Source of the DNA: a virus
Virus record (IMG/VR): IMGVR_UViG_3300045988_143923
Strand: one strand, 5' to 3'
DNA: 64,000 nt
Positions 20,461 to 63,132 of this stretch are shown one piece after another (position 1 is the first letter of the stretch; every line of letters starts with the position of its first letter). Position numbers and translations under genes: made by a program. The notes below the pieces were generated by a model. The model had not been told where the DNA came from. It did no database searches and was given only the letters and a program-made list of their open reading frames with translations.

Positions 20461-20510
20461 CTGAATACCTCCTCCGCGGGGTAATTGGATTTTTTTTGCT
20501 TCTATTAACT

Positions 20511-20539: not shown

Positions 20540-20680
20540 GAAGTTGAAGAAAAAGATGCATAAAGATTGAGAATTCTTTTGTGCATGTTGCTGAATGGGA
20601 AAATAGCAATCTGAAGTATGCTCTTCTGGCTGGCTTAGACCTATGTAGCAATACTTAGGTAGCAATACTGAAATAGATAA

Positions 20681-20711
20681 AGCCGACCATTAGACCTTGG
20701 CCGGCTGTTTT
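20681..20711 (+). terminator. possible rho-independent terminator (weak)
   Basis: AGCCGACC...GGCCGGCT stem (one mismatch) followed by GTTTT. Confidence 0.3.
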
Positions 20712-21197: not shown

Positions 21198-21336
21198 CGG
21201 GAAAGGGGGAGTGGCGAAAACTCGGGAACAGCGCACGAAATTGAGGAAACGGGGATTAAAGAGGGGAAAAGGGATGGGGAGGAGAGCGAAAGTTCGGGGA
21301 AAGAGGGGGAAAATATGGGGTAGAGTGAGATGAGGT
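21198..21336 (+). repeat. ~140-nt polypurine tract with multiple G3-G5 runs
   Basis: GGGAAAGGGGGAG...GGGGATTAAAGAGGGGAAAAGGGATGGGGAGGAG...GGGGAAAGAGGGGGAAAATATGGGG; almost no pyrimidines on the plus strand. Confidence 0.85.
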
Positions 21337-21798
21337 AACTACCTTTCCTGAAACTGGTAAAATATCTGGAAAAGTGTAAAATATACCCCATATGATAAAA
21401 AAGAAGCATTTACACCGCTGAAAAGTGCCGGAATGCTGTTTTATAGTATACTTGAAAAGTCGATTTTTGAAGCAGGCCGATTTTTTGAGGTGTCAAGACA
21501 CATATCTTTACGCCTAAAGTTGGATATATGAACAGTCGCTCATATGTTATTTTCTTAACATAGTGTTGGCGTGTTGTCTTCTGGTGATCGGCAGGACAGA
21601 GGGCGGAATTCTCAAAAAATAGGCGTGCAGCACGACGGAAAAATCTTTTTTGCGCGCTTTTCTGATTTTTTCTAAAAACTTTTCCGTGCTCTAAATCCCT
21701 GTTTTCGTCTTTTTCGCCTGTTTTGCGAACCTCTACGCGCGCGTGCGTTTTCATTATCTTTGAAAAAATTGCCCCCAAAAATTTTTTTGAAAAAAGTG

Positions 21799-21827
21799 TT
21801 GACACTGTGCGCACAGAGTGCTATACT
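21799..21827 (+). promoter_or_regulatory. near-consensus sigma70-type promoter
   Basis: TTGACA (21799-21804), 17-nt spacer, TATACT (21822-21827); A/T-rich upstream region. Confidence 0.7.
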
Positions 21828-21887
21828 GTGAGCACAGTCAAGGAACGGCACCCCGCCGGACGGCTTGACAGGGACAGTGCCCACTGT
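21805..21887. promoter_or_regulatory. three palindromic operator-like sites sharing ACAGT/ACTGT half-sites
   Basis: CTGTGCGCACAG (21805-21816, in the spacer), ACTGTGAGCACAGT (21825-21838, over the -10/+1), ACAGTGCCCACTGT (21874-21887, between a second TTGACA and TATAGG). Confidence 0.5.
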
Positions 21888-21976
21888 ATAGGGCACGGGG
21901 CGCGCCCCCTATAGCGTGAAGTCCGGACGGCGTCCGGCGTGAAGTTTGACAAGTGAACAGCGACTTCTCGGCTTGT

Positions 21977-22134
21977 ACCGCTTTCCCTCGATAGAGGGCG
22001 GGCGGGTTTCGAGTGCACCGCTTTTCCCTCGATAGAGGGCGGGCGGGCGTTATGCTTGACAGGTCGAAAAGAACAGTTGTGAGAATACCGCTTTCCGGTC
22101 GTGCATAACGGAATTGCACGACTTTCCGCGGGCG
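21977..22134 (+). repeat. three ACCGCTTTCC-hairpin-GGGCG modules in a GC-rich leader
   Basis: 21977-22006 and 22017-22047 nearly identical (CCCTC-GATA-GAGGG hairpin); 22087-22134 has the same flanks around a different 8-bp hairpin GTCGTGCA/TGCACGAC. Confidence 0.75.
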
Positions 22135-22435
22135 CGTTGCGCTTGCGGGTGGGAAAGTGCTTGCGTTCTGCATATGCGGTTCAATCGTGACAGGTGCACC
22201 GCGCAGAGTAGGCAAGGACGGGCTTAGCCCCCGCAAGCAAGCTACGTTTAGCGTGTCCGTGAAAACACGTACCAAAACCGCGCAAGCGGCGGCGGGGTTT
22301 GCGGTTATCCAAAACCGCGCAGGCAGTACATAACAGGTTTCCCCCCGGGGGGTCCCCTTCAATTGACCCCCCGGTGCCAATGCCGCAAGGCAAGTACATA
22401 TTCACGCAAGGACTTTACATACTGGAGGTTTTATT

Positions 22436-34768: not shown

Positions 34769-35059
34769 ATGAATTACATTGCATTACAAAAAGCTCAGGA
34801 AGAGCTCAATCTCACGCCAGCAGAAAAGGAACGCTACGACACTCTGACTGCAATGCACCATCTCGTAATGTGCATGAACGATGAAACTGCATACATGACG
34901 TGGATTTGGTCAGTTCCAGATGAAGCAAGCGCATATGACCTTGCCGATATTGCTAAGGAAAAGGACGAGTTTGACGGTGTCGTAAGACTTTTCAAAAAGC
35001 TCTGGAAGAAATACGCCGCAAGCGATTCCGGTTTATGCATCGGAAGAACAACCTATTAA
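34769..35059 (+). CDS. hypothetical protein
   Basis: 96 aa, AGGAGG RBS. Confidence 0.6.
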   Translation: MNYIALQKAQEELNLTPAEKERYDTLTAMHHLVMCMNDETAYMTWIWSVPDEASAYDLADIAKEKDEFDGVVRLFKKLWKKYAASDSGLCIGRTTY

Positions 35060-35138
35060 AATTGAATCCGTATAAAATAATGACACAAGCAGGAGCCAAC
35101 AGCTCCTGCTTTTTATATCCAAATAGGAGGTATACATC

Positions 35139-35834
35139 ATGAATAATAACATCAAGGAAAAAATCGCAAAGCTCCTCGCACTGGCAGAGTCCCCGAATGA
35201 AAACGAAGCGAAAGCCGCTCTGCTCAAGGCTCGCGCCCTCATGGTACAGCACAAGCTCCGTCCAGAAGAGTGCACCGGCAAAAAAGAAAAGGTCGTGACC
35301 AAGGTTCTTGCCGATATCAAGTGCACGACCATGACCGACTTCTGGATTTACAAGCTGAGCGACGTGATTGCCAAGCATTATTGCTGCAAGAATTACTGCC
35401 GCAAGCCGCCGCGCAGCAAGGCACTCACGATTATTTTGATGGGCCTTGAAAGCGATATTGAAATCGCCGAGCGCATCCTCCGCTACGCAATCGACTGCGT
35501 CAAGAGGGAACAGCGCACCATTCATCACACGAGAAAGTGGCAGGGTTACAGCGCAACCGATATCCGCCTTGCCTGCAACGCTTACGGCGACGGTTTCGTT
35601 GCCGGTCTGGATCAGGAATACCAGAAACAGGACGCCGAGCATCAGGAATGGGGACTGGTCATGATGACACCGAAGGACGTGCAGGATGCCTACGGTAACC
35701 TCAGCATGAAAACGAGCACGTCTCTTGCAAGAACCGCCGGTGCCTGGGCAAATAAATACCGCGATCAGGGTGTAGAGCACGGACGTTCTTTCAAACCTGA
35801 CCAGCGCCTGCACAACACCGCAATCGCAAGATAA
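35139..35834 (+). CDS. DUF2786-like protein
   Basis: 231 aa; N-terminal KIAKLLALAESPNENEAKAALLKARALM is the DUF2786 signature as I recall it. Confidence 0.55.
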   Translation: MNNNIKEKIAKLLALAESPNENEAKAALLKARALMVQHKLRPEECTGKKEKVVTKVLADIKCTTMTDFWIYKLSDVIAKHYCCKNYCRKPPRSKALTIILMGLESDIEIAERILRYAIDCVKREQRTIHHTRKWQGYSATDIRLACNAYGDGFVAGLDQEYQKQDAEHQEWGLVMMTPKDVQDAYGNLSMKTSTSLARTAGAWANKYRDQGVEHGRSFKPDQRLHNTAIAR

Positions 35835-35846
35835 GGAGGAATTGTT

Positions 35847-36344
35847 ATGATTGTATTCGCAGTATCTCAGCTCCGCAGTTATTACGACTGCGGAGAACGA
35901 TATTTTGGCACCGAGGGTATTTTTCTTACTTACGGCGAAGCAAAGGAATTTATCAAGCAGGAGATCGACGATATCATCTCCGGTTCTAACATAGACGACC
36001 ATGAGACATTCTTCGGCTCGGACGACGAATTCGAGGACGAGGTGTCTTTGACTGATAATTCCATCTCGAGTTTCGGTCACAAGTTTCAATGGGATATTTC
36101 GCCTGTTACATTGAAAAAATCTGTGAAACAGAAGGTTTTCGAAACCATCCAGCACGAAAACGATATTGAAGATATCAAAAATATTATCGAAGTCGAAGAC
36201 GATCTGCTCTACGACCATATCCGCGATATTTCGATTGACACCATGAACCGTATGGCATACCTCAAACGCGAGAAGGAAGACAACGGCATGGCGTGGAACG
36301 ATGCCGCATCCGCAGCATTCCATGAAGTAATCAACCAGCAGTAA
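35847..36344 (+). CDS. hypothetical acidic protein
   Basis: 165 aa, AAGGAGG RBS. Confidence 0.65.
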   Translation: MIVFAVSQLRSYYDCGERYFGTEGIFLTYGEAKEFIKQEIDDIISGSNIDDHETFFGSDDEFEDEVSLTDNSISSFGHKFQWDISPVTLKKSVKQKVFETIQHENDIEDIKNIIEVEDDLLYDHIRDISIDTMNRMAYLKREKEDNGMAWNDAASAAFHEVINQQ

Positions 36345-36362
36345 ATAAGGAGTGTATACATC

Positions 36363-36974
36363 ATGACTATCAATACCAATATTAAGATCAGCCCGGGCAA
36401 TTCCAAGATGGGAGCAATCCCGTCCGTCAGCCTGCCGGCCATTAAGACCTGCCGCGACTGCAAATGCAAAGAGAAGTGCTACGCAGCTAAGCTGGAGCGT
36501 CTGAGACCGACCGTAAGAAACGCCTATCAGCATAACCTCGAGGTGCTCCAGAGCAATCCTGAGACGTTCTGGCGTGAAGTAGAGGCAACCGTAATGCTTA
36601 ACCGTTACTTCCGGTTTCACGTCAGCGGTGACATTCCGAGCAAGGATTATCTGTTCCGCATGATCGGTATCGCCGAGCGCAATCCGCACTGCGAAATCCT
36701 GTGTTTTACCAAGCGATATGATTTTGTAAACGCTGTCCTGCGTGACGGCAAGCATATTCCCAACAATTTACATCTCATTCTTTCCGGATGGGTTGACCTC
36801 GAAATGGTCAATCCTTTTTCTTTACCCGAAGCACACGTTCGCTTCAAGGATGGCACAACGACCGCAAGAGCAGATGCAAAGCCGTGCAGCGGTAACTGTG
36901 CCGAGTGTGCAATGACTGACACCGGCTGTTGGACACTGAAGCGCGGCGAGCAGGTTGTGTTCAACGAGCACTAA
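36363..36974 (+). CDS. Cys-rich GP88-like protein (tentative)
   Basis: 203 aa; N-terminal NSKMGAIPSVSLPAIKTCRDCKCKEKCYA and C-terminal CSGNCAECAMTDTGCW clusters. Confidence 0.4.
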   Translation: MTINTNIKISPGNSKMGAIPSVSLPAIKTCRDCKCKEKCYAAKLERLRPTVRNAYQHNLEVLQSNPETFWREVEATVMLNRYFRFHVSGDIPSKDYLFRMIGIAERNPHCEILCFTKRYDFVNAVLRDGKHIPNNLHLILSGWVDLEMVNPFSLPEAHVRFKDGTTTARADAKPCSGNCAECAMTDTGCWTLKRGEQVVFNEH

Positions 36975-37021
36975 ACCGACCGAACGAAAACAACAAATCC
37001 GACCGATTGGAGGTAATCAAA

Positions 37022-37303
37022 ATGAAAAAAATCTATGTTCTGCGCTACTGGTACGATAATGAAGATACTTCCGGCGGTGAAGTAATCGCCGCCAGTGAGA
37101 ACTTGCACACACTGAACAGCATCATGCGTGACAGCGTAAAGCGCAGCGGCGTTCTGGATGATGAGGAAACCGAGTGGGACGAGGACGAAACCGAGTTCCT
37201 GACCGACGACCCTAACCAGATGTATGTTTGTTACTCTTTTTATTGCAGTCCCTGCAATTACGCCAAAACCGTGTGGGAAATCACCGAAGTCGAAGTGAAA
37301 TAA
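37022..37303 (+). CDS. hypothetical protein
   Basis: 93 aa from ATG 37022 (RBS GGAGGT). Confidence 0.6.
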   Translation: MKKIYVLRYWYDNEDTSGGEVIAASENLHTLNSIMRDSVKRSGVLDDEETEWDEDETEFLTDDPNQMYVCYSFYCSPCNYAKTVWEITEVEVK

Positions 37304-37315
37304 GGAGGAAAATAC

Positions 37316-37873
37316 ATGAAAAAGATTTACAAATGTACCGAATGCGGTAAGTCGTTCACCCTTGACGATTGCGAGCTTCCCGAGCCGCGCACCATCAACG
37401 ACGGCACAAAACACGAGCGCATTGTCTGCGATTCCTGTTTTGAATACCTGTGGGATAAAACGGAAATCGTCAACTGCTTCAACTGTGGCTGTTGGTTTGA
37501 CAGCCGGGACGTTCTGCTCCACGGAGAAGATATCGGAAGCGAAACCTTTTATCCCTGCCCGAATTGCAATCATGATATTGTCGATGGCAAAACGAAAGCA
37601 GAGTACATTAAAGAAGCGAATCTGACAAAGGCAGAAGAAAACCCGAGCTTCGCAGTCACTTTTGCCTACGATGATGGTGACAACGCCACTTATCTCTTCC
37701 CGACGGAAGAAAAGCGCATTATGTTTATCGACCAGAGGATCAGAGACCTCAAGGAAGACGGCACTTACCTTGGTTCGGCCAGCATCCATCCCGATGCACT
37801 CGTTGTCATCACCGAGGATGCAAACAGGGAAAAGCACCGTATGCAGATCATTAAGAGCAACATTTATCGATAA
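37316..37873 (+). CDS. multi-zinc-ribbon protein (candidate partner of the downstream MazF-like toxin)
   Basis: 185 aa; CTECG...CDSC, CFNCGC, CPNCNH; ends 11 nt before the toxin gene. Confidence 0.6.
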   Translation: MKKIYKCTECGKSFTLDDCELPEPRTINDGTKHERIVCDSCFEYLWDKTEIVNCFNCGCWFDSRDVLLHGEDIGSETFYPCPNCNHDIVDGKTKAEYIKEANLTKAEENPSFAVTFAYDDGDNATYLFPTEEKRIMFIDQRIRDLKEDGTYLGSASIHPDALVVITEDANREKHRMQIIKSNIYR

Positions 37874-38379: not shown

Positions 38380-39348
38380 ATGAAAGAAAATACCAATCGA
38401 GTGGGCGACTTTTCGTTCATTCGCTTTCCGGCGGCACTGGTCAAGCTGCCCTGTTTCAAAGCACTTTCCGCTGACGCTAAACTTCTTTACGCCTTAATTG
38501 TAGATCGGTTCAACCTCTCTATCTCGAATAAATGGAGAGATGAAAACGGTACGCCGTATGTCTATTTTTCCATTGACTCGGTGATGGAAAGCATTGGCTG
38601 TGCAAAGGCAAAAGCGGTCAAGCTGATGGATACGCTCGAAGATTGGGGTCTCATTCGCAGAGCGAAGCAAGGGCTCGGCAAGCCGAATCGCATCTATGTG
38701 CTCGACCCGGCATTGCTCGACCAGTTCGAAAACCGAACCACTTTATCCACAAGCTCATCCACAGACCAGTTCGATTCTGATACCAGTTCGGAAATCAAAC
38801 CGGTCGGAAATCAAACCACTTTATCCACAGACCAGTTTGATTCTGAAACTACTTTATCCACAGACCAGTTCGATAATCAAACCAGTTCAGACCAGTTCGA
38901 TTTTGAGACTAGTTCGATTATCAAACCCAAGAAGTTTGATTTTCAAACCCAAGAAGTTCGATTTTCAAACCCTAATCAGACTAAGTATAATCAGACTAAT
39001 AATAATCAGACTGAAAGGACAGAGAGAGAAACGAAAGTCCCGGCTCTGGTCAGCGGCGTCATGAACCAGAATGCAAAGGAAATTCTTTGCAGAAGTTTTG
39101 ACGAAGCCTTAGTGAAGCGGACAACCAGTCTGCTCTATGAACTCGTAGCAACACCGAGCCAACACGTTCGCGTTGATAACACACTGACAAGCGGCTACGC
39201 TCTCAGCCAGCAGTTGGCTAATATCAGCGTAGAGCAAATCCAGTCGGCGCTGAATAACTTCACAACAAGAACATGTCCTGCAGCAGAGGAACGAGATTAC
39301 TTACTGACAGCATTGTATGACGCAAGCAAGAATAACAGAACATCATAG
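38380..39348 (+). CDS. RepA_N-family replication initiator
   Basis: 322 aa; F.FIRFP..L......KALSADAKLLYALIVDRFNLS..NKWRDENG.PYVYFS.....E.IGC...KAVKLMD.LE.WGLIRR......KPNRIYV; central region encoded by dense DNA repeats. Confidence 0.7.
   Translation: MKENTNRVGDFSFIRFPAALVKLPCFKALSADAKLLYALIVDRFNLSISNKWRDENGTPYVYFSIDSVMESIGCAKAKAVKLMDTLEDWGLIRRAKQGLGKPNRIYVLDPALLDQFENRTTLSTSSSTDQFDSDTSSEIKPVGNQTTLSTDQFDSETTLSTDQFDNQTSSDQFDFETSSIIKPKKFDFQTQEVRFSNPNQTKYNQTNNNQTERTERETKVPALVSGVMNQNAKEILCRSFDEALVKRTTSLLYELVATPSQHVRVDNTLTSGYALSQQLANISVEQIQSALNNFTTRTCPAAEERDYLLTALYDASKNNRTS
38737..39015. repeat. iteron-like direct repeats inside the RepA_N gene
   Basis: ACCACTTTATCCACAGACCAGTTCGAT variants (x3), GACCAGTTCGATT (many), TCAAACCCAAGAAGTTYGATTT (x2), AATCAGACT (x4). 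Confidence 0.85.
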
Positions 39349-43282: not shown

Positions 43283-43362
43283 GTTGTATACTATCACTAA
43301 GAACGGCTATGTAGCCGTTCTTTTTTGTGCAATTAACCAAAACGAAAAAACTTTCAAAATTC

Positions 43363-43391
43363 GCGTCCCAAAAACGCGATTTTTGTATAGT
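43363..43391 (+). promoter_or_regulatory. phage promoter class GCGTCC-N17-TATAGT (copy B)
   Basis: TTCGCGTCCCAAAAACGCGATTTTTGTATAGTAGTA upstream of the sigma-factor gene. Confidence 0.5.
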
Positions 43392-43430
43392 AGTAAGTGT
43401 AAGGGAAATCGAGTAACGTATTCTACACCA

Positions 43431-43482
43431 AAAGGAAGAATTGACACCATTTATGAAATCACAAAGGAAGAATTGACACCAT
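43431..43482 (+). repeat. two 20-nt direct repeats AAAGGAAGAATTGACACCAT in the sigma-gene leader
   Basis: Copies at 43431-43450 and 43463-43482. Confidence 0.85.
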
Positions 43483-43517
43483 CCCTTGCGAGAAAACCAG
43501 AATCGGAGGGATTGCAG

Positions 43518-44033
43518 ATGATTGATGAAAGCCAATATCAAAAAGCGCTGCTCTTGTTTGAGCAGCATGACAAGATCAGATATTTCGTTATCCGCAAATA
43601 TTACCCGACCTTGCTCTACAACGAGGATGTGGAGCAGGCGACAAAATGCGGATTGTGGCGAGCGGCCGTAACATACGACCAGAATAAGGATTGTACATTT
43701 TCCCATTATGCAATTTCCTGCATCATGGCGGAGATGGTTCCCTACACCAGAACCATCAATAAGCACAATAAAGCTACGGATAACGCGATTAAATGTTCCG
43801 ATAGAAATCGCCGCCCGATGAATTCGCCGGATGACGTCCTCTGCATTGACCTGCTGGACTTCCTCGCTCGGCTTCCAAGTGATCTGAAAGTTGTAGTCGA
43901 TTACCGAAAAGTCGGCTATCGCTCTGAAGAAATTGGTCAAATCCTCGGAATCACAAAGCGGTCGGTTGACCGCCGGCTGGTAAAGGCACTGAGAATGTGG
44001 CACGACTTTATCGACGATTCGTCTGCGGCATAA
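43518..44033 (+). CDS. sigma-70 family (region 2 + region 4) sigma factor
   Basis: 171 aa from ATG 43518 (RBS GGAGGG); ...DVEQATKCGLWRAAVTYD......FSHYAISCI (region 2-like) and GYRSEEIGQILGITKRSVDRRLVKAL (region 4 HTH). Confidence 0.6.
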   Translation: MIDESQYQKALLLFEQHDKIRYFVIRKYYPTLLYNEDVEQATKCGLWRAAVTYDQNKDCTFSHYAISCIMAEMVPYTRTINKHNKATDNAIKCSDRNRRPMNSPDDVLCIDLLDFLARLPSDLKVVVDYRKVGYRSEEIGQILGITKRSVDRRLVKALRMWHDFIDDSSAA

Positions 44034-44062
44034 CCTCGCGGGGCGAAAGCCCCGCAAAATAT

Positions 44063-44136
44063 GCGCTTGTGTTGTAATGGCAGCAAATCAGCTTCCCAAG
44101 CTGAGAGTGCGGGTTCGATCCCCGTCAGGCGCTCCA
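44063..44136 (+). tRNA. tRNA-Gly (CCC)
   Basis: Acceptor GCGCTTG/CAGGCGC, anticodon arm TCAGC-TTCCCAA-GCTGA, T arm GCGGG-TTCGATC-CCCGT, CCA encoded. Confidence 0.85.
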
Positions 44137-44210
44137 CCCCGAAAGGGGTCATTGTTTAACTCTCCGACAATCCGGAAAGACGGACGGCGGCGTGGAATGC
44201 GCCGCAACAT

Positions 44211-44287
44211 GGGTCTTTAGCGCAACTGGTTAGTGCCTTCGGCTCATAACCGAAAGATTGCGGGTTCGAGTCCCGCAAGACCCACCA
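44211..44287 (+). tRNA. tRNA-Met/Ile2 (CAT)
   Basis: Acceptor GGGTCTT/AAGACCC, anticodon arm TTCGG-CTCATAA-CCGAA, T arm GCGGG-TTCGAGT-CCCGC, CCA. Confidence 0.85.
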
Positions 44288-44341
44288 CCGACGCAAGTCG
44301 GCAACTCCTTTCAATGCTAGGAGGCGGCAACGCCTCCAAAC

Positions 44342-44417
44342 CACCCATTAACTCAACTGGCAGAGTAATCGGCCTTTAACCGATAAGTTCCGAGTTCAAA
44401 CCTCGGATGGGTGACCA
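44342..44417 (+). tRNA. tRNA-Lys (TTT) with unusual C33
   Basis: Acceptor CACCCAT/ATGGGTG, anticodon arm ATCGG-CCTTTAA-CCGAT (second loop position is C, not U), T arm CCGAG-TTCAAAC-CTCGG, CCA. Confidence 0.7.
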
Positions 44418-44552
44418 CGTCCGCCGCGCAGGACAAAAATAATTCAAATTGGAGGAACTCCCAACCAAGGTTTCCAAGCCGCGCGGGGCACGACGTTGCC
44501 CAGACGTCAACAATTTCATAAACGGGTTGCCCGCCCCGTCAGCGGGTGATCT

Positions 44553-44608
44553 GCTCTCGTAGCTCAAGGCAGAGCAGGGCGATGTCGGTTCGATTCCGAC
44601 TGAGAGCA
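44553..44608 (+). ncRNA. 56-nt tRNA-like element lacking an anticodon arm
   Basis: Acceptor GCTCTCG/TGAGAGC, D arm GCTC-AAGGCA-GAGC, T arm GTCGG-TTCGATT-CCGAC; only 8 nt (A26 plus GGGCGAT) lie between the D and T arms; no CCA. Confidence 0.45.
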
Positions 44609-44614
44609 GCACAT

Positions 44615-44708
44615 AGAGGAGTGGTGTAACGGTCAGCACGCAGGGTTCTAACCCCTGAGCAGGTGACACCCTGCGTCGGTCTGGGTTCGAGTCCCGGCTC
44701 CTCCGCCA
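44615..44708 (+). tRNA. amber suppressor tRNA (anticodon CTA), class-II scaffold
   Basis: Anticodon arm CAGGG-TTCTAAC-CCCTG (CTA at 44648-44650); 23-nt variable region with GCAGG/CCTGC helix; T arm CTGGG-TTCGAGT-CCCGG; acceptor AGAGGAG/CTCCTCC (A1-C72 mismatch); G73; CCA. Confidence 0.75.
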
Positions 44709-44734
44709 GAGCAAAAAAGAAAGTCGGTGAAGCA

Positions 44735-45241
44735 GTGTTAGAAAAAGAATATGTCCTATACCATTCAAAGAAAAAGCGATATGTCGCTATTGACAGTAAA
44801 GCAAGACCGACATTTGTGTTCGATCCGGCTAAAGCAAAAGCATTCACGCACACGGCGGCTAAGAATTTTCTCCGAGTAAATGCCCGCGGCGAATTCAAAA
44901 ACTGTTGTATCGAGCCAGTAGATGAGAAAGTCAGACAGCAGCTTGTACCGATTGTGAACGCGGCGGTTTCCCAGAGTGATGTTCTGCAAAAGATCATCGA
45001 CGACCTTTCGATTACGGTGCATGACTGTGATCTAAAGATGGTTGACTTGTACCACTTCGCTGGAAACAATCCCAAACTTCCAGCGCATCGCGGCTACAAA
45101 ATCTATAAAAAACTGGCCGAGCTTGTGCAGGAACGAGCCAAAGCCAAGGCGCAAATCCAAGCCATTAAGTCAGCAATGACTTATGAATATGTACCATACA
45201 ACCCAAGAACCGAGCTTTATAACGAGCTCGACAAAATGTGA
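44735..45241 (+). CDS. hypothetical protein
   Basis: 168 aa from GTG 44735 (GGTGA upstream). Upstream in-frame codons overlap the suppressor tRNA. Confidence 0.55.
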   Translation: MLEKEYVLYHSKKKRYVAIDSKARPTFVFDPAKAKAFTHTAAKNFLRVNARGEFKNCCIEPVDEKVRQQLVPIVNAAVSQSDVLQKIIDDLSITVHDCDLKMVDLYHFAGNNPKLPAHRGYKIYKKLAELVQERAKAKAQIQAIKSAMTYEYVPYNPRTELYNELDKM

Positions 45242-47684: not shown

Positions 47685-48095
47685 ATGGCAGACAATAATA
47701 CGAACTGGCAAGTAGTTCTTATTCGCGACGGAGAAATTTACGGATACATGGATGAACCGAATGTCTACGCAAGACACATGAAGGATGTCCCTCATCTTGT
47801 GTTTACGGCAGAAGGCGGTGTAAAAACTCTGCGAAGAGGTCGAACAAACACATGGAAAGCCAACGAGCTGTGCAGGGAACTGGAGAAGATCATCAGCCCG
47901 GAGTCTGCTGCGGAACATAAGAAAGAAAACAAACCGTATCTCGTCTACGGAATTGACATTAAAAGTCTCGAAAGAATGCTTGTTCCGAATGCAGAAATGT
48001 TCCCGATTGAGGTAACCGCCAAGATCAACGAACTGATTTCCGCAGTAAAGACACTTAACGAACGCTTTGAGGAGGATATTTACCATGCAGACTAA
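47685..48095 (+). CDS. hypothetical protein
   Basis: 136 aa, AAGGAG RBS. Confidence 0.6.
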   Translation: MADNNTNWQVVLIRDGEIYGYMDEPNVYARHMKDVPHLVFTAEGGVKTLRRGRTNTWKANELCRELEKIISPESAAEHKKENKPYLVYGIDIKSLERMLVPNAEMFPIEVTAKINELISAVKTLNERFEEDIYHAD

Positions 48096-48705
48096 ACCCA
48101 CGTTCTACATGATGGTCGGCGTGCCGGGTTCCGGCAAAACCACCTACGCCCACCAGATTCCGAACGCAACCGTGCTCTCAAGTGACGATATTCGCGCTGA
48201 GATCGGAGCAGACGGCGGCGACAAGAAAATGCACAAGCAGGTCTTCGATATCCTGCATGAGCGTACAAAGGAAACACTTTCTGTTGGTAAAGATGTTGTT
48301 TACGATGCAACGAATCTGCGGCATACGCGCCGCACCGAGCTTCTGAATGAGCTCAAGGGATTGGCTGACCACAAGGTTTGCGTTTACTTTGCAATCCCGT
48401 TGGAACAGGCGCTGTCCCAGAATGCCGACCGCGACACGCCGGTTCCGGAAGAAGTGATCAAGCGCATGAATCTGGAGCTGTGTGAGCCGAGAATTGATGA
48501 GGGCTGGGATGAAATCAAAGTCATCCGTAGTCTGCCGGAGCGCAACATCGACCGTATCCGCAAGATGACGGTTCGGAAGATGGCAGAATTCTTAATAAAC
48601 GAGTGCAGTGATGCTGTTGATCACGTTTTCGCTTACGCATCCGCAGAAAGAAAGGACTTGGTTGCTGATTGCGTCGATTGGCTGAACCGTCCTGCCGAGG
48701 ATTAA
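48085..48705 (+). CDS. P-loop kinase (AAA_33 / polynucleotide-kinase-like)
   Basis: 206 aa from ATG 48085 (GAGGAGG); VGVPGSGKTT Walker A, ...DATN... and R-rich lid typical of PNK/zeta-like kinases. Confidence 0.6.
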   Translation: MQTKPTFYMMVGVPGSGKTTYAHQIPNATVLSSDDIRAEIGADGGDKKMHKQVFDILHERTKETLSVGKDVVYDATNLRHTRRTELLNELKGLADHKVCVYFAIPLEQALSQNADRDTPVPEEVIKRMNLELCEPRIDEGWDEIKVIRSLPERNIDRIRKMTVRKMAEFLINECSDAVDHVFAYASAERKDLVADCVDWLNRPAED

Positions 48706-55733: not shown

Positions 55734-55848
55734 TCCGGTGTAGCTCAATAGGCAGAGCGCGAAACATGTGGACTGATAAGTCCGCTGACAGCAATTTTCT
55801 TTTAGATTTGTAATCTCGATGCTGTCGGTTCGAATCCGGCCTCCGGGC
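55734..55848 (+). tRNA. tRNA-Thr(TGT)-like gene with a 42-nt insertion 5' of the anticodon loop
   Basis: Acceptor TCCGGTG/CTCCGGG (one mismatch), D arm GCTC-AATAGGCA-GAGC, 5' anticodon-stem CGAAA, insert 55765-55806, loop TTTGTAA, TCTCG, T arm GTCGG-TTCGAAT-CCGGC. Confidence 0.4.
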
Positions 55849-56863: not shown

Positions 56864-58417
56864 ATGGATTTTACAACCGCAATGGCTAACACGCTGAACG
56901 AAGATTACAACGTCAGCGTAACCGAGAACGGCGCTGTCGGTTACAGAACGACCGGCAAAGCGCTGCTCGACCTGAATTTCTCCGTAGCCTCGCTCCGCAG
57001 CGCAAGCGAAGCTGAGATCGTGAGTAAGTTCGTCAAGGCATTCTTCGAGGACAAAATGGCCGCGATGAAGTGGCTGTTCTTCGCCCGAGATGTTCGCGGT
57101 GGACTCGGCGAGCGCCGATTGTTCCGCACCGTAATGAAGTATCTGGCGGACAACCTGCCGGAATACGTCCGGCCAGTAATCGAGTTGATTGCAGAATACG
57201 GTCGCTATGATGACCTGCTGTGCCTGTTGGATACAGATTTGGAAGTAAAAGTTTTGGACTACATCTACTTTCAGTTCAATTATGACATCCATCGTTATGA
57301 AGAAGGTAATCCGATCTCACTGCTAGCAAAATGGCTTCCGTCTCCGGGCGCTTCTTCTTACAATTCCCGTCGATATGCAAAGATTATTTGTAATCGACTG
57401 AACTTCACTCAGAAGTATTACCGCCAGACTCTTTCCAAACTACGCGGCTATCTCGATGTAGTCGAGAAGAAAATGTCCGCAAAGCAGTGGGGCGAGATCA
57501 AATATGAAGCAGTCCCGTCCCGCGCAAATCTCATTTATAATAAGGCGTTTCTGAGGAACGATGAGGAGCGCCGCCGTGCTTATCTGGAAAGCCTCGCTAA
57601 GGGCGAAACCAAGATAAACGCAGGCACGCTGTTCCCGCACGAGATCGTCCATAAGTATGGCAACTCTGGATGGAATACAATCACCGAGTGTAACGAAACG
57701 CTCGAACAACTGTGGAAGGCTCTGCCTGATACGGTGAACGGCAACGGGAACACCATTGTCGTAGCGGACGGCAGCGGCAGTATGACCTGCGGCGTAGACC
57801 CGCACAGCAGCGTAACTGCACTGGACGTAGCAAATGCACTTGCGATTTACTTCGCGGAGCATTCCTCCGGCCAGTTCAAGGACAAGTACATCACGTTTTC
57901 CACTCGTCCTCGGCTGGTTGATTTCTCCAAAGCAAAGAACCTGCGTGAGAAGCTGTTAATCGCTAAGCAGCATAACGAGATGGGAAATACCAACATTGAA
58001 GCTGTTTTTAACCTGATTTTGACCACAGCGGTCAACAATCGAATGAAGCAGGAAGATATGCCGCAGAATATTCTCATCATCTCCGATATGGAGTTCGACT
58101 CCTGTGCAACTTGCGGCAGTCAAACGGGTTACTGGAGCCGAAAGCGGCCGGATTCCCGTCTGTTTAACGTGATTCGTCAGAAATATGAAGCAGCCGGTTA
58201 TAAACTGCCGCGCCTCGTGTTCTGGAATGTCAACAGCCGCACCGGAACCATTCCGGTTAAGGAAAACGATCTCGGTGTTGCTCTGGTCAGCGGCTTCAGC
58301 CAGAATGTAGCTTCTATGGTGATGAGCGGTAAGCTCGACCCGTATGAATGCCTGATGGAAACGCTAAACAGTAAGAGATATGATCCAATCGCGAAAGCAC
58401 TGGAGGGGATTGCGTGA
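56864..58417 (+). CDS. DUF2828-like (TROVE-like) + vWA domain protein
   Basis: 517 aa; N-terminal ...TENGAVGY.TTGKALLDLNF........WLFFARDVRGGLGERRLFR...; MIDAS motif VVADGSGSMT. Confidence 0.65.
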   Translation: MDFTTAMANTLNEDYNVSVTENGAVGYRTTGKALLDLNFSVASLRSASEAEIVSKFVKAFFEDKMAAMKWLFFARDVRGGLGERRLFRTVMKYLADNLPEYVRPVIELIAEYGRYDDLLCLLDTDLEVKVLDYIYFQFNYDIHRYEEGNPISLLAKWLPSPGASSYNSRRYAKIICNRLNFTQKYYRQTLSKLRGYLDVVEKKMSAKQWGEIKYEAVPSRANLIYNKAFLRNDEERRRAYLESLAKGETKINAGTLFPHEIVHKYGNSGWNTITECNETLEQLWKALPDTVNGNGNTIVVADGSGSMTCGVDPHSSVTALDVANALAIYFAEHSSGQFKDKYITFSTRPRLVDFSKAKNLREKLLIAKQHNEMGNTNIEAVFNLILTTAVNNRMKQEDMPQNILIISDMEFDSCATCGSQTGYWSRKRPDSRLFNVIRQKYEAAGYKLPRLVFWNVNSRTGTIPVKENDLGVALVSGFSQNVASMVMSGKLDPYECLMETLNSKRYDPIAKALEGIA

Positions 58418-58625: not shown

Positions 58626-59174
58626 ATGAAAGTTTTAGTAGTAGTGGATATGCAGAATGACTTCATCGATGGCGCTCTCGGTACGCCGGAAGCAAAAGCT
58701 ATTGTTTCAAAGGTAGTCGAAAAAATCAAAGCTGTCGGTGATGACGATATTATTTGCGTAACAAAGGACACACATTACGCGGATTATCTCGATACACAAG
58801 AGGGGAAATTGCTCCCGATTCCTCACTGCCTTGTGGAAACGCACGGTTGGGAGATCGAGCAGACTGTTCAGAATGAATTAGACAAACGAGGGGAAACTCT
58901 CGTATTCGAGAAAGAAACGTTCGGTTCTGTTGATCTTGGTGACGCACTGGATTTGGTTTGGATCGACAATCTGGATGAAATTATTTTGGTTGGCCTTTGC
59001 ACAGACATTTGCGTTATTTCCAACGCTTTGCTTATCAAAGCATATCTCCCAGAGGTAAAGATCACAGTAGATGCGTCCTGCTGTGCCGGAACAACGCCTG
59101 AAAACCATAAGAATGCGCTGGCAGCCATGAAAATGTGCCAGATTAACATCGAAAACGAGGAGGAAGCCGTATGA
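58626..59174 (+). CDS. isochorismatase-family hydrolase, nicotinamidase (PncA)-like
   Basis: 182 aa from ATG 58626 (RBS AAAGGAGAA); VVVDMQNDF, ...KD.H, LVGLCTDICV catalytic Cys motif. Confidence 0.7.
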   Translation: MKVLVVVDMQNDFIDGALGTPEAKAIVSKVVEKIKAVGDDDIICVTKDTHYADYLDTQEGKLLPIPHCLVETHGWEIEQTVQNELDKRGETLVFEKETFGSVDLGDALDLVWIDNLDEIILVGLCTDICVISNALLIKAYLPEVKITVDASCCAGTTPENHKNALAAMKMCQINIENEEEAV

Positions 59175-59965
59175 TTTCCGTAAATGGGGACCCGATTGAT
59201 TTTACCTGTTTTCCAGACGGAACGACTTCGTTTCGTTACGATCCAAGCTTGGAAGAAGAGGAGTTTGTCATCCAGTGGAAGTATGATGGTGATCATGAGT
59301 GCATTTTGCTGTGGTATCTGGTTCATCGTATACGAAGCTATGACTCTCGTGCTGAGATTATACTTCAGCTTCCGTATATTCCCAACGCGAGAATGGATCG
59401 TGTTAAAAGCTCTGACGAAGTTTTCACATTAAAATACTTTGCAGAGTTTATCAATAGTCTGTCTTTTGATTTTGTGGTTGTTCGTGATCCACATTCTAAT
59501 GTAGCCCCAGCATTGCTCAATAACGTTAAGGTTCTCGATGCTAGATATTATATCATGCAAGCAATCGCGAATTGTATGACATGCGGAGAGGATTTGCTGC
59601 TCTGTTACCCTGATGAAGGAGCTGCAAAACGTTACACTGAGCTTCTGAAGCGCGAGCACGTTTTCTGTATCAAACACCGCGACTGGCGCACGGGGAATAT
59701 CGAGGGGTTGGAGCTGACCAACCCGGAACTTGTCGAAGGACGCAACGTTCTGATTGTAGATGACATCTGCTCTCGCGGCGGTACGTTCACTCATACAGCC
59801 AAAGCACTCAGAGAAGCCGGGGCGAAGGATATTTTCCTTTATATCACCCATTGCGAAAACACCATCAAAAAGGGCACAATTCTGACTGACGGCCTGATTA
59901 AGCACGTTTACACCACCGGAAGCATTTATCGCGGCAACCACGAAATGATTACGGTTCTGTTCTGA
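59171..59965 (+). CDS. ribose-phosphate pyrophosphokinase (Prs)-like protein; NARP1 Adps candidate
   Basis: 264 aa; PRPP/phosphoribosyltransferase loop VLIVDDICSRGGT; Prs-like two-domain length; coupled to the NAMPT-like gene. Confidence 0.65.
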   Translation: MISVNGDPIDFTCFPDGTTSFRYDPSLEEEEFVIQWKYDGDHECILLWYLVHRIRSYDSRAEIILQLPYIPNARMDRVKSSDEVFTLKYFAEFINSLSFDFVVVRDPHSNVAPALLNNVKVLDARYYIMQAIANCMTCGEDLLLCYPDEGAAKRYTELLKREHVFCIKHRDWRTGNIEGLELTNPELVEGRNVLIVDDICSRGGTFTHTAKALREAGAKDIFLYITHCENTIKKGTILTDGLIKHVYTTGSIYRGNHEMITVLF

Positions 59966-59980
59966 TAAGGAGACGAAACA

Positions 59981-61474
59981 ATGATTGACTACAATCCGCT
60001 GCTGTGCTTGGACTTCTACAAGACCTGCCACGCCGAACAGTATCCGAAGGGACTGACCCGTATGGTCAGCTATTATACGCCGCGAATGTCTCGTCTGGCA
60101 GACACAGATAAGGTAACGATGTTCGGCTTGCAAGCGTTCATCAAGGAATACCTGATTGACGGCTTTAACAAATATTTTTTCGAGCGAGATTTCGAAAAGG
60201 AAATCCTCCCGGAGTACAAGCGTGTGCTTGGCGCAACAATCGGAACTTCCGGCGTGGGCAAAGAGCGGCTGCTGAAGCTGCATAATCTCGGCTTTCTGCC
60301 TCTGATAATCAAGGCAGTTCCGGAAGGAACACGGACTAACATTCATGTGCCGCAGATCGAGATTACCAATACGTTGCCATCTTTTGTCTGGTTGGTAAAC
60401 AGCATTGAAACCATGCTGTCCTGCACAATGTGGCACACGCAGGTTTCTGCGGAGGTTGGCTATCGGTATCGCCAGATCGTCAACAAGTACGCAGACCTGA
60501 CCTGCGACGACGATGTTGACCGCGCCCGACTTCTCGGTGATTTCTCGATGAGAGGACAGGAGAGCGTCGAGAGCGCAACAAAGAGCTCGGCAGCGTTTCT
60601 GTTGAGTTTTCTCAATACAGCGACTGTCCCGGCTATTCTTTGGTTGGAACGAAATTATAACTGCAGCTGCGATCAGGAACCGGTTGGATATGGTGGTATT
60701 TCGACCGAACACAGCGTAATGTGCTCCAATGCCGCAGTTGACGGTGATGAGATTACACATCTGCGCCGACTGCTCACCGAGATTTATCCGCATAGCAGTT
60801 TCTCCGTTGTGTCTGACAGCTACGACTATTGGAATTTAGTTGATAAGCTGTTGCCGCAGCTCAAGAACGAAATCCTTGAACACAATGGAACTCTTTCTAT
60901 TCGCGGTGACAGCGGTGATCCGGTCGAGGTTGTCACCCAGACAGTATTTCATCTCTGGAATATTTTTGGCGGCACGAGAAACAGCAAGGGATTCAAAGTT
61001 CTGAATCCGCATATCAAGGCGCTGTACGGAGACAGCATTACGCCGCAGCGTTGCGAAAAGATTTACTCAATCCTGAAAGAGAATGGGTTCGCAATTAACA
61101 ACGTGGCTTTGGGTGTCGGCTCCTTCTCCATGGAATGTCTGGAGACGATTGACGAAAATGGAAATGTCCAGTATAACCCGTATACGAGAGACACGTTCGG
61201 CATCGCGGTCAAGGCAACCTACGCAGAGGATGAGAACGGGCCGATTATGATTTTCAAAAATCCAAAGACGGACACCGGCCATTTTAAGAAGTCCCAGCGC
61301 GGATGCTGTATCGTGCGGGAGAACGACGGCGAGTATTCTTACGAGGACGGACACACCTTTAAGGAAACATACGACCTTGATAATGAGATGGCACCTGTAT
61401 TCATCCACGGTAATATGGTCAATGAATACACGCTGGCAGAGGTGCGCGACAGATTGCACGGAGGTAAATTCTAA
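59981..61474 (+). CDS. NAMPT-family phosphoribosyltransferase (NadV/Namat-like)
   Basis: 497 aa; N-terminal NPLLCLDFYKTCHAEQYP (compare N..L.TDSYK..H..QYP), ...RGDSGDP..., ...GVGSF... Confidence 0.75.
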   Translation: MIDYNPLLCLDFYKTCHAEQYPKGLTRMVSYYTPRMSRLADTDKVTMFGLQAFIKEYLIDGFNKYFFERDFEKEILPEYKRVLGATIGTSGVGKERLLKLHNLGFLPLIIKAVPEGTRTNIHVPQIEITNTLPSFVWLVNSIETMLSCTMWHTQVSAEVGYRYRQIVNKYADLTCDDDVDRARLLGDFSMRGQESVESATKSSAAFLLSFLNTATVPAILWLERNYNCSCDQEPVGYGGISTEHSVMCSNAAVDGDEITHLRRLLTEIYPHSSFSVVSDSYDYWNLVDKLLPQLKNEILEHNGTLSIRGDSGDPVEVVTQTVFHLWNIFGGTRNSKGFKVLNPHIKALYGDSITPQRCEKIYSILKENGFAINNVALGVGSFSMECLETIDENGNVQYNPYTRDTFGIAVKATYAEDENGPIMIFKNPKTDTGHFKKSQRGCCIVRENDGEYSYEDGHTFKETYDLDNEMAPVFIHGNMVNEYTLAEVRDRLHGGKF

Positions 61475-62226
61475 TGGGAAACGCAAAGACACTGAAAAAT
61501 CATATTGTCCAGTGGATTATGAACTACTTCGAAGATAACGGCAAAGACTGTTACGCCGTTGTTGGCATCTCTGGAGGGAAGGACAGCAGCGTTGTTGCCG
61601 CTCTCTGCGCTGAGGCACTCGGCAAAGACCGTGTTGTCGGCGTGCTGATGCCGAATGACAAACAGTCAGACATCGAAGATTCGTACCGGTTGGTTGAGGC
61701 TCTCGGAATCAAAAGTGTCGAAATCAATGTCGGCGACGCTTATTCTATGATGCTCAGCGAAGGTTCGCACGAACTACCTATCAGCAAGCAGGCGGAGGTA
61801 AATCTGGCACCCAGACTTCGAATGGCGGCTCTGTACATGGTAGCGCAGTCTTTAGAGCACGGCGGCCGCGTAGCTAACACCTGCAATTATTCCGAAGACT
61901 ACGTTGGTTACTCCACCAAGTACGGTGACAGCGCCGGTGATTTCAGTCCACTGTCCGGCTTGCTTGTCAGCGATGTCGTAGCGGTCGGTCACGAGCTGCC
62001 GATCCCTGCCGATCTGGTGGACAAGACTCCATCTGACGGACTTTGCGGAAAGTCTGACGAGTCAAATCTCGGTTTTACTTACGCTCAGTTGGAGAAGCAT
62101 ATCGTAGATGGCAGCTGTGGTGATCGAGAGATCGACAAGAAGATTTGCAATCTGCATTATAAGAACCTTCACAAGATTACGCCCATGCCGTATTTCAAAA
62201 AGCAGTTGCCCCTGGAAGGCTTCTAA
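61474..62226 (+). CDS. nadE: NH3-dependent NAD+ synthetase
   Basis: 250 aa; PP-loop GISGGKDSSVVAAL; ...GTxNxSE-like NTCNYSEDYVGYSTKYGD. Confidence 0.8.
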   Translation: MGNAKTLKNHIVQWIMNYFEDNGKDCYAVVGISGGKDSSVVAALCAEALGKDRVVGVLMPNDKQSDIEDSYRLVEALGIKSVEINVGDAYSMMLSEGSHELPISKQAEVNLAPRLRMAALYMVAQSLEHGGRVANTCNYSEDYVGYSTKYGDSAGDFSPLSGLLVSDVVAVGHELPIPADLVDKTPSDGLCGKSDESNLGFTYAQLEKHIVDGSCGDREIDKKICNLHYKNLHKITPMPYFKKQLPLEGF

Positions 62227-62264
62227 GCTACAGGTTTGCGGTCAACCTTAAACCGCACTTTTAC

Positions 62265-62335
62265 GGGTGAGTGGTGAACAGGAAACACCGGAGAGTAATA
62301 TCATCGAAAAGCAGGTTCGAATCCTGCCTCACCCG
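62265..62335 (+). ncRNA. tRNA-like element with degenerate anticodon arm
   Basis: Acceptor GGGTGAG/CTCACCC, D arm GTG-AACAGGAAA-CAC, T arm GCAGG-TTCGAAT-CCTGC; the 17 nt in the anticodon-arm position (GGAGAGTAATATCATCG) do not pair; no CCA. Confidence 0.4.
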
Positions 62336-62437
62336 AATCGCACCGCAGATCAACAAGGCTTGCAAGCACCTGCGGTGAACAGTCCGTGCCTGCGAGGTGT
62401 CGTCGGACTATAATTCAGAAAAAACGCCTCGCTACAT

Positions 62438-62598: not shown

Positions 62599-62706
62599 TC
62601 GTGTTGGTGCAACGCACGCCTCACCGGCACAAATGTACTTAGAGCGGTGTTCTCTCATGTCACGTCCGTTAAGCGTGACAACTATTGTCGAAAAGAGGTG
62701 ATTCTT

Positions 62707-63132
62707 TTGTACGACGTATTGACAATCTCAGATTACATTATCAGGCGTTGCTCTAACGAGGGGTACACTGTCAGTAATCTGAAGCTACAGAAACTGCTGT
62801 ACTTCGTTCAAGCCGAGTTCCTTGTCGTTACTGGGAAGCCATGCTTTCGAGAGAAGATTGTCGCTTGGGATTTTGGACCCGTAATTCCTGAAGTATATCA
62901 CGAGTTTTGCATATTTGGTTCCGCTCATATTCCGGTAGGTGTAGCTTCAGCGCCGGGTTTGTCTAAAGAAACGGCAGAACTTATCGACGGTATCGTCTTT
63001 ACATGTCTGCCATTCAGCTCGTCACAGCTTGTCGAAATCACTCAGCATCAAAACCCGTGGATCTGTGCTTATGCAAAGGGCTACGGCACAGAGATTACGA
63101 ATGAGTCCATCCTCAACTTTTTCGCGGAATAA
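62707..63132 (+). CDS. DUF4065 (Panacea/SocA-like) antitoxin-domain protein
   Basis: ~141 aa from TTG 62707; ...NLKLQKLLYFVQAEFLV.TGKP.F.EKIVAWDFGPVIPEVYHEF... is the DUF4065 core pattern. Confidence 0.6.
   Translation: MYDVLTISDYIIRRCSNEGYTVSNLKLQKLLYFVQAEFLVVTGKPCFREKIVAWDFGPVIPEVYHEFCIFGSAHIPVGVASAPGLSKETAELIDGIVFTCLPFSSSQLVEITQHQNPWICAYAKGYGTEITNESILNFFAE

Follow-up and report, generated by a model that had tools for sequence, protein, structure and literature searches.

Why should a phage that uses the standard genetic code carry a tRNA that reads a stop codon? The question is raised by a stretch of viral DNA 64,000 nucleotides long (IMG/VR record IMGVR_UViG_3300045988_143923), called the window below and always meant at its full length, in which a tRNA gene with the amber-reading anticodon CUA lies at 44615-44708. 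The reason for stop-codon recoding in phages is debated, and the leading idea is that it times late or lytic expression. Tests of that idea are difficult, since a recoded phage has its recoded genes by the dozen and a host that is mostly uncultured. The present case is simpler, in that the 64 kb examined contain one suppressor and two in-frame TAG codons, each in a small regulatory gene, and it is tractable because the prophage is found in the assembly of a named strain, Butyricicoccus sp. AM05-1. The reading developed here is that a functional amber suppressor probably reads the two conserved TAG codons in an SPbeta-like phage that keeps the standard code, and would thereby license a few regulators. 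The features at issue are:

44615-44708, plus strand: amber suppressor tRNA, termed the L-type allele (ARAGORN, Rfam RF00005 and sequence)

44658-44680, plus strand: its extra (variable) arm of 23 nt (sequence; scored by cmscan as a 20-nt insertion in the variable region)

20080-20460, minus strand: small RepA_N-family gene with an in-frame TAG at codon 11, 20428-20430 (Pfam RepA_N)

17669-17893, minus strand: 74-codon Cys-rich open reading frame (ORF) with an in-frame TAG at codon 34, 17792-17794

ARAGORN finds 13 tRNA genes in the window, among them a 94-nt gene with the anticodon cta at 44615-44708(+); the label "Pyl" that it attaches to this CUA tRNA reflects the anticodon alone. In the first-pass annotation of this DNA, rejection of the fold or anticodon by a covariance model was named as a refutation; the Rfam tRNA covariance model accepts both at 50.3 bits (gathering score 29; E=8e-8 over 64 kb), and cmscan and ARAGORN place the gene end to end in the canonical register of a 7-bp acceptor and a 5-bp T stem, with U8 unpaired. 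Direct reading of the sequence gives the anticodon arm as that annotation had drawn it, CAGGG-TTCTAAC-CCCTG, with a 5-bp stem and a 7-nt loop in which C34, U35 and A36 fall at 44648-44650 and U33 and A37 are both present. The D arm is GTGT-AACGGTCA-GCAC with an 8-nt loop, the T arm is CTGGG-TTCGAGT-CCCGG, and the acceptor is AGAGGAG/CTCCTCC, followed by G73 at 44705 and an encoded CCA at 44706-44708. The extra arm consists of a single A, a hairpin GCAGG-TGACAC-CCTGC (44659-44674; 5-bp stem, 6-nt loop) and then six unpaired nucleotides, GTCGGT, so that by size alone, with a variable region of more than 10 nt that forms a stem-loop, the tRNA counts as class II. The 23-nt variable region with its 5-bp helix, the discriminator G73 and the A-C mismatch at 1:72 (flagged "v" by cmscan) had all been described correctly at first pass. 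Together, the fold, the position of CUA, the location in a phage and the in-frame TAG codons described below argue for a phage-encoded amber suppressor.

The cloverleaf has a computed energy of -34.2 kcal/mol, and the nominal minimum is an unrelated, non-cloverleaf fold of -38.6 kcal/mol. It had also been suggested that an alternative 7-bp pairing, CGCAGGG/CCCTGCG, could remodel the anticodon arm; both 7-mers do exist, but the best fold of this kind reaches only -26.4 kcal/mol, about 8 kcal/mol worse than the cloverleaf. Other classes of unusual tRNA were tried and set aside. The tRNA for pyrrolysine has very short variable and D loops and a 6-bp anticodon stem, a compact fold that is contradicted here by the 23-nt variable region, the 8-nt D loop and the 5-bp anticodon stem, and no pyl-like gene was found among the window proteins that were scanned. 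A selenocysteine tRNA was rejected on geometry, and an allo-tRNA (8/4 or 9/3) on the 7-bp acceptor, the 5-bp T stem and the unpaired U8. Finally, the proposal that a ribozyme of the hepatitis delta virus-like or theta type adjoins the tRNA found no support, the Rfam scan of 43950-44900 giving no ribozyme family match at E<=5, with the presence of a dedicated theta model in Rfam 15 not verified. The gap from the tRNA to the next ORF is 26 nt.

The window is phage DNA, with genes for a terminase, a portal and a 981-aa YonO-like RNA polymerase among the minus-strand genes at 1-20 kb, and contigs with the same proteins carry the SPbeta-named Pfam families YonD, YonB, YomW, YomV, YomU, YomN, YonJ and YonG. 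Judged by its genes and its relatives, it is an SPbeta-like temperate phage or prophage of gut Clostridia. The prophage is found in NCBI assemblies, including that of Butyricicoccus sp. AM05-1 (Clostridia), relatives are common in human gut metagenomes, and more distant homologues of the polymerase (40-53% identity) occur in Lachnospiraceae, Christensenella, Roseburia and other Clostridia. Searches of the GenBank phage collection by megablast of 40-50 kb or by blastn of the tRNA region gave nothing; the nearest GenBank phage record has 46% identity in the RNA polymerase and no CUA tRNA. A 23-mer across the anticodon arm of the suppressor had 0 matches in species-representative genomes. Sequence past the right end of the window matches only contigs of 2-3 kb.

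The genes of this phage read well in the standard code. Treating TAG as a sense codon barely lengthens the ORFs of the window. The structural operon at 1-20 kb (terminase, portal, tube) reads without a break in code 11, and the 10 kb beyond the left end of the window, including tail genes (one product is 2502 aa long), is likewise intact and holds no TAG-interrupted gene. Among 109 strand-constrained ORFs the stops are TAA in 64, TGA in 40 and TAG in 5, and two of these five overlap tRNA genes, which leaves TAG at the end of about 3 of 107; TAG nevertheless makes up 17% of all stop trinucleotides. One of the roughly three TAG-ended ORFs encodes a full-length paralogue of the RepA_N protein, and readthrough there would add 4 residues:

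38380-39348, plus strand: full-length RepA_N paralogue (Pfam E=2.6e-21)

On these gene and stop counts the phage is not globally recoded, and TAG is almost purged as a terminator. Naive gene calling can mislead in this DNA: the minus-strand ORFs at 34992-36755 and 36971-37837 (587 and 288 aa) are antisense artefacts, the plus-strand ORFs being the ones that match PHROG.

If TAG is so rare as a stop, where does it stand inside genes? A scan of both strands for a Shine-Dalgarno (SD) sequence and start, a TAG and then an open coding stretch returned two sites only, the RepA_N gene and the Cys-rich ORF. The first-pass annotation had described the window as standard code with a single in-frame TAG, at 20430; the standard code holds, and that TAG is real at 20428-20430(-), but it is joined by the second at 17792-17794.

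The small RepA_N gene provides the stronger case. It is laid out as GGAGGAGG-N7-ATG, ten codons, the TAG and 115 further codons, and its full-length product, of 126 aa, would begin MAKRPAIHTT#KNPKF... (# marks the TAG). The Pfam RepA_N match (E=1.3e-14) lies downstream of the TAG, and the first canonical start beyond it is 38 codons on, inside the domain. The TAG is kept in 9 of 9 IMG/VR relatives and in the isolate genome. It is also kept in three further metagenome contigs, one of which has a remodelled leader, MTKCST#K, and in four contigs of a variant with the identical leader and only 59% identity in the domain downstream. The ratio of non-synonymous to synonymous polymorphism (pN/pS) is 0.14 downstream of the TAG (24.5 synonymous and 12.5 non-synonymous changes) and 0.10 upstream, compared to 2.16 and 1.68 in the control frames, and 37 of the 58 variable sites downstream are third positions. 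This pattern of substitution indicates purifying selection both upstream and downstream of the TAG. Immediately 3' of the gene lies a repeat array that is a putative origin or Rep-binding site:

19792-19940, no strand assigned: six iteron-like direct repeats with the core CGTCCTTCCAAATCAAAC and a period of 21-22 nt (repeat search, family D1)

In relatives with the divergent RepA_N variant, the RNA polymerase gene (L083:4156-7712; also L082, L084 and L085) is called in three pieces, with a frame change by tblastn and a partly duplicated segment, for which an insertion, an intron or intein, or the assembly may be responsible.

The Cys-rich ORF is the weaker of the two TAG cases. It consists of AAAGGAG, an ATG, 33 Cys-rich codons, the TAG, 40 codons and a TGA, which shares the string ATGA with the start codon of the RNA polymerase gene:

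14727-17672, minus strand: YonO-like single-subunit RNA polymerase, 981 aa (phrog_8308; tblastn)

The tblastn matches of this polymerase are annotated RNA polymerase homologues in Enterocloster and Psychrobacillus phages. The TAG of the Cys-rich ORF, like that of RepA_N, is kept in all nine IMG/VR relatives and in the isolate genome, and the region after it shows three synonymous changes versus one non-synonymous change, plus an in-frame deletion of one codon (3 nt). In MT835469.1, a distant relative that lacks a CUA tRNA, the corresponding position is taken by a Cys-rich ORF of 74 aa with no interruption, but the two ORFs have no significant similarity (E=0.87). No homologue with a sense codon at the TAG position was found, only N-terminal fragments that end at the TAG, and in more distant prophages the ORFs that precede the polymerase gene are unrelated.

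The suppressor is itself strongly conserved, in flanking sequence that varies. Its surroundings in the window are:

43284-44033, plus strand: sigma-70-like gene, preceding the tRNA cluster

44063-44417, plus strand: cluster of tRNA-Gly(CCC), tRNA-Met(CAU) and tRNA-Lys(UUU), co-oriented and directly upstream of the suppressor

44553-44608, plus strand: tRNA-like element without an anticodon arm (Rfam tRNA 42.5 bits, anticodon arm deleted)

The exact 94-nt sequence occurs in 17 further loci or contigs from IMG/VR and gut metagenomes, making 18 L-type copies in all, and is preceded in every case by tRNA-Gly(CCC), a tRNA for Met or Ile, tRNA-Lys(UUU) and the 56-nt tRNA-like element. In each contig a gap of 6 nt separates the element from the suppressor downstream of it, and the element has 10 sequence variants among contigs whose suppressor is invariant, which argues that the invariance of the suppressor reflects constraint rather than too little time to diverge. 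It comprises an acceptor, a D arm and a T arm, with 7 nt in place of the anticodon arm, and ends in A73 and GCA, not CCA. All 160 of 160 stem cells are paired across the 10 variants, and two T-stem pairs change on both sides. Possible roles for the element are as a scaffold in processing, as a decoy, or as an acceptor that does not decode.

When the D arm and the TCTAAC loop were used together as the query, a single other allele of the suppressor, here called S-type, was found, in eight loci (L016:1906-1978; also L017, L029, L033, L034, L036, L041 and L043). It is a 76-nt class-I tRNA with a D arm identical to that of the L-type, a 4-nt variable loop and no extra hairpin; its acceptor is GGGGGAG/CTTCTCC with A73 and no encoded CCA, and it scores 49.3 bits against the Rfam tRNA model. 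The long arm is thus no fixed feature of the locus. The anticodon loop of the S-type, TTTCTAAC, has 8 nt, one U more, and can be read as CUA, UCU or the four-base UCUA; the base after the RepA_N TAG is always A (UAGA). The acceptor stems of the two alleles differ at 1, 3, 68 and 73, of which 1, 3:70 and 73 are classic identity positions, and the S-type carries G3·U70 and A73, the determinants of alanyl-tRNA synthetase (AlaRS). Over the 24 nt of its T arm and 3' acceptor strand, the S-type exactly matches a tRNA-Ala(UGC) on an unrelated viral contig, L086. Every large contig with the TAG genes also has one of the two CUA-loop alleles.

These observations can be joined in a simple model. The suppressor would be transcribed with the plus-strand tRNA cluster downstream of the sigma-like gene, charged by a host synthetase, and would then compete with release factor 1 at UAG. 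Readthrough at codon 11 of the RepA_N gene and codon 34 of the Cys-rich ORF would yield full-length products only when the phage tRNA is present, and functions in replication and late transcription would in this way be licensed by the tRNA at the level of translation. Because both alleles, with their different identity sets, accompany the same TAG codons, the model suggests that readthrough matters more than the residue inserted. The earlier suggestion of local recoding, or of suppression as a regulatory device, fits best with the standard code, the TAG ends of about 3 in 107 ORFs and the two conserved in-frame codons, which also answer the check for TAG inside conserved genes.

Several considerations weigh against this model. 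The scan for TAG interruptions is unspecific on its own, since the same scan with TGA and TAA as controls gives 2-3 ordinary cases of adjacent genes. The count of in-frame TAG codons covers 64 kb, roughly two thirds of the genome at most. The relatives are mostly more than 90% identical, so that conservation of the TAG codons is partly a matter of shared descent, and the suppressor, with 18 identical L-type copies and one other allele, shows no covariation in its arm or its fold. In the Cys-rich ORF the substitution counts are small, and an ATG 11 codons past the TAG permits a two-ORF reading. We infer the expression and charging of the tRNA, readthrough itself and its regulatory purpose from DNA sequence.

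An opposing view would have the tRNA not decode at all, being instead a relic, an element used in processing or bait for host defences aimed at tRNA, with both TAG codons genuine stops; the products would then be a leader of 10 residues and a Cys peptide of 33, with re-initiation downstream at non-canonical or internal starts. The NCBI Prokaryotic Genome Annotation Pipeline (PGAP) does start the RepA_N gene at an ATC past the TAG, the ATG in the Cys-rich ORF offers a second such start, and phage tRNAs have known anti-defence roles (PMC10264068, PMC11555353, PMC11464382). The window moreover has other anti-defence-like genes, and tRNA-like RNAs unable to decode occur near the suppressor. Against this stand the canonical loop (U33, CUA, A37), the encoded CCA and the absolute conservation of the L-type. 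The ten RepA_N codons before the TAG vary synonymously, and the 13 codons from the TAG to the ATC lie in the same selected frame; neither alternative start is preceded by an SD sequence, and the RepA_N TAG persists where the leader or the domain has been replaced. The near absence of TAG terminators, expected with an active suppressor, would otherwise go unexplained, and we regard a non-decoding tRNA as improbable. More improbable still is the opposite extreme, a genuinely recoded code-15 phage with many TAG sense codons of which the window shows few by chance. Related large Clostridia phages of the phAss-1 group have TAG in 28% of their ORFs and several CUA tRNAs, recoding is often limited to late modules, and the window leaves out about a third of the genome or more. 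Here, however, the structural genes at 1-20 kb and in the adjoining 10 kb are intact under the standard code, ORFs hardly gain length when TAG is sense, only two genes in 64 kb have an in-frame TAG, and TAG still ends about three ORFs.

Decoding by a functional suppressor thus remains the preferred explanation, and it leads to the further question of which amino acid would be inserted. The first-pass annotation took the class-II scaffold to predict a Ser-like identity. That prediction now appears weak, given the class-I S-type allele, a Gln tRNA that exists with and without a hairpin, and an acceptor end shared with that Gln tRNA, the relevant gene in the window being:

431-523, minus strand: tRNA-Gln(UUG), 93 nt, with a comparable extra hairpin (ARAGORN)

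The acceptor of this tRNA-Gln is AGAGGTG/CATCTCT with G73, and it also has G2-C71 and A3-U70. In other contigs, including L010 (10849-10923) and L078, the same locus holds an ordinary 75-nt tRNA-Gln(UUG) with the identical acceptor and G73; the comparison of these alleles also covers L079 and L081. In one long variant an A-U pair of the hairpin stem becomes G·U, with pairing kept, and the with-arm and without-arm alleles of tRNA-Gln and of the suppressor assort independently among contigs. The phage clade has a third class-I isoacceptor with an extra arm besides these two, a tRNA-Ile(UAU) of 94 nt whose long variable hairpin is found where the cluster otherwise has tRNA-Met(CAU) (L002:2863-2956, L004:3276-3369). 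From these comparisons the extra arm looks like a lineage-specific hairpin on a class-I body and not a mark of Ser, Leu or Tyr ancestry. The coexistence of alleles with and without the arm is relevant to the evolution of tRNA identity and architecture in phages, and as a caution for annotation, a long arm need not mean Ser. The acceptor and D arm of the suppressor are unlike those of the Ser and Leu tRNAs of the window, with which there is no sequence resemblance (the tRNA-Ser has GGCACAG...G73 and the Leu tRNAs have A73), and its D arm is also found in Gln, Met and Glu tRNAs of other phages; where class II is defined by homology to Ser, Leu or Tyr tRNAs, the suppressor falls outside it. Among the 13 tRNAs of the window, the combination of A1, an AGAGG acceptor and G73 is common only to the suppressor and tRNA-Gln, whose 5' acceptor strands are AGAGGAG and AGAGGTG, respectively.

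Glutaminyl-tRNA synthetase (GlnRS) of E. coli recognizes the 1:72 and 3:70 pairs, G73, G10 and U35; G73 counts against the leucyl and tyrosyl enzymes (LeuRS and TyrRS), and an amber tRNA-Ser, for all its long arm, has been turned into a Gln acceptor by two acceptor-stem changes, at 1-72 and 3-70 (PMC9976931). Recoded phages, the related phAss-1 group among them, decode TAG as Gln. The suppressor has the weak A1·C72, G2-C71, G73, G10 and U35 of the GlnRS-type set and resembles the phage's own tRNA-Gln at the acceptor end, and for these reasons we lean towards Gln over Ser, Gln being close to an even bet. Some features count against Gln: the suppressor has A3-U70 and A36 rather than the E. coli determinants G3-C70 and G36 (A3-U70 being found in the phage's own tRNA-Gln as well), a CUA anticodon weakens recognition by GlnRS, and the argument is built on E. 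coli identity rules, while A3-U70, the long arm and G73 would fit Ser too. Serine is a lesser possibility, in which seryl-tRNA synthetase (SerRS), whose charging is independent of the anticodon, would recognize the long arm and G73 so that TAG is read as Ser. The 5-bp variable hairpin, G73, G2-C71 and A3-U70 are all in place for this, and the G3·U70 and A73 of the S-type suggest AlaRS, another anticodon-independent synthetase, making it plausible that such enzymes are exploited at this locus. A Ser identity fits less well with the six unpaired nucleotides 3' of the arm, versus two in the phage's own tRNA-Ser, with the class-I type of D arm and with the lack of likeness to the window Ser and Leu tRNAs. 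In addition, A1·C72 is no Ser feature and fits the weak 1:72 pair favoured by GlnRS, and a tRNA-Gln(UUG) persists with the hairpin, G73, G2-C71 and A3-U70, which argues that such a hairpin alone does not cause serylation.

One apparent line of evidence for Gln was rejected. Ten database proteins show Q at codon 11 of the RepA_N gene, and in all three that were checked the DNA has TAG and fails translation table 11; the Q is an artefact of code-15 gene calling. In the comparison of proteins P0004-P0013 with contigs L075-L077, it is gene callers switching to code 15 on short contigs that give the Q. A "Q" from code 15 is accordingly not evidence of the inserted residue, and these calls and the post-TAG ATC start of PGAP both hide the in-frame stop of the RepA_N gene.

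The idea that the residue matters little could be carried further. The two TAG codons might be "locks", one on an origin-binding RepA_N protein and one on an ORF coupled to the late polymerase, forming a minimal translational switch opened by expression of the tRNA cluster, with the identity of the amino acid immaterial and the extra hairpins on class-I tRNAs a phage-specific adaptation. Under such a scheme the L-type (A1·C72, G73) would be Gln- or Ser-like and the S-type (G3·U70, A73) Ala-like, and the hairpin could shield the tRNA from host defences that target tRNAs, or be what a phage factor recognizes. In this full form the proposal is speculative, and we consider it doubtful.

Phage suppressor tRNAs, depletion of TAG before recoding and standard-code relatives with suppressors are already described. 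The closest parallels are the recoded gut phages (crAss-like, Lak, Agate and Jade) with tRNA-Sup(CUA) (bioRxiv 10.1101/2021.08.26.457843; PMC9523058) and the phAss-1 group (PMC10607447). As in those phages, a phage-borne CUA tRNA is paired with a host of standard code, there are in-frame TAG codons, TAG is depleted as a terminator, timing of lytic functions is proposed, and with no phage synthetase the host enzyme must do the charging. The present phage differs in having two in-frame TAG codons in 64 kb, in small regulatory genes instead of structural or lysis genes, and in being SPbeta-like and temperate. It matches the stage at which, in the account of Borges et al. (bioRxiv 10.1101/2021.08.26.457843), a relative with the standard code has gained a suppressor, and a two-gene licence would be in line with their regulatory hypothesis, reduced to a temperate phage. 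In the literature searched we found no TAG codons confined to two small regulatory genes of an SPbeta-like prophage.

Other systems resemble parts of the locus. The Gln suppressors of the supE type and cases of GlnRS mischarging (PMC9976931) share CUA with U35, a weak 1:72 pair, G2-C71, G73 and G10; the present tRNA is not a host tRNA-Gln with a single anticodon change, and it has A3-U70 rather than G3-C70, an extra arm and a host of the Clostridium class, whose identity rules may not be those of E. coli. Nematode nev-tRNAs (PMC3333845) and bacterial allo-tRNAs (PMC5389517) likewise combine a long variable arm with an anticodon other than Ser, Leu or Tyr, and in them the arm dictates the amino acid, Leu or Ser, which is the logic of the first-pass prediction. 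The suppressor is unlike allo-tRNAs in its 7/5 rather than 8/4 or 9/3 acceptor/T geometry (PMC5389517), and unlike both groups in its 6-nt 3' linker and in a class-I-type body that is also known without the arm, in the S-type and the tRNA-Gln alleles. The literature searched yielded no report of a 23-nt variable region on a phage suppressor tRNA, of a variable-region hairpin on non-Ser/Leu/Tyr bodies in three tRNA families with coexisting alleles, or of a tRNA-like RNA without an anticodon arm fused upstream of a suppressor. Programmed readthrough, as in the A1 protein of Qbeta (PMC7918605), shares the conserved in-frame stop, coding selection on both sides and a product that needs readthrough; it differs in that near-cognate host tRNAs read a leaky UGA, whereas here the phage supplies its own suppressor and the codon is UAG.

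Several further features of the window and its relatives deserve mention. A 115-nt match to the tRNA model at 55734-55848(+) (34.6 bits), not called by ARAGORN, has a 49-nt insertion at the anticodon loop and is a candidate for a structured RNA that does not decode; some 1 kb downstream of it is the gene for a DUF2828/DUF7788/VWA protein (56864-58417), labelled by PHROGs as an RNA-binding protein. Another tRNA-like gene at 62264-62336(+) (35.6 bits) has a 6-nt anticodon loop, to which ARAGORN assigns a 2-base anticodon, and G73 without CCA. A SocA_Panacea-domain protein is encoded amid tRNA genes at 62647-63132(+), identified by Pfam matches on relatives. The divergent gene blocks are separated by roughly 2 kb (20461-22435) in which every one of the six frames is interrupted by stops. 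This region has a strong positive GC skew and short direct repeats (e.g., of 25 nt at 21982 and 22023) with no Rfam match, and could serve as an origin or in control, or encode an RNA. The AAA_33/KTI12-like kinase at 48085-48705(+) may be an enzyme of the polynucleotide-kinase type, which would fit a theme of RNA repair and anti-defence. Genes of nicotinamide adenine dinucleotide (NAD) metabolism occupy 58626-62226(+) and encode isochorismatase/nicotinamidase-like and phosphoribosyl pyrophosphate (PRPP)-synthetase-like proteins, a nicotinamide phosphoribosyltransferase and an NAD synthase, a cluster that we take to resemble the NAD-reconstitution modules with which phages counter host defences. 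Outside the window, the tail-gene region of the related contig L010 contains a group I intron at 20149-20457 (Rfam 69.2 bits).

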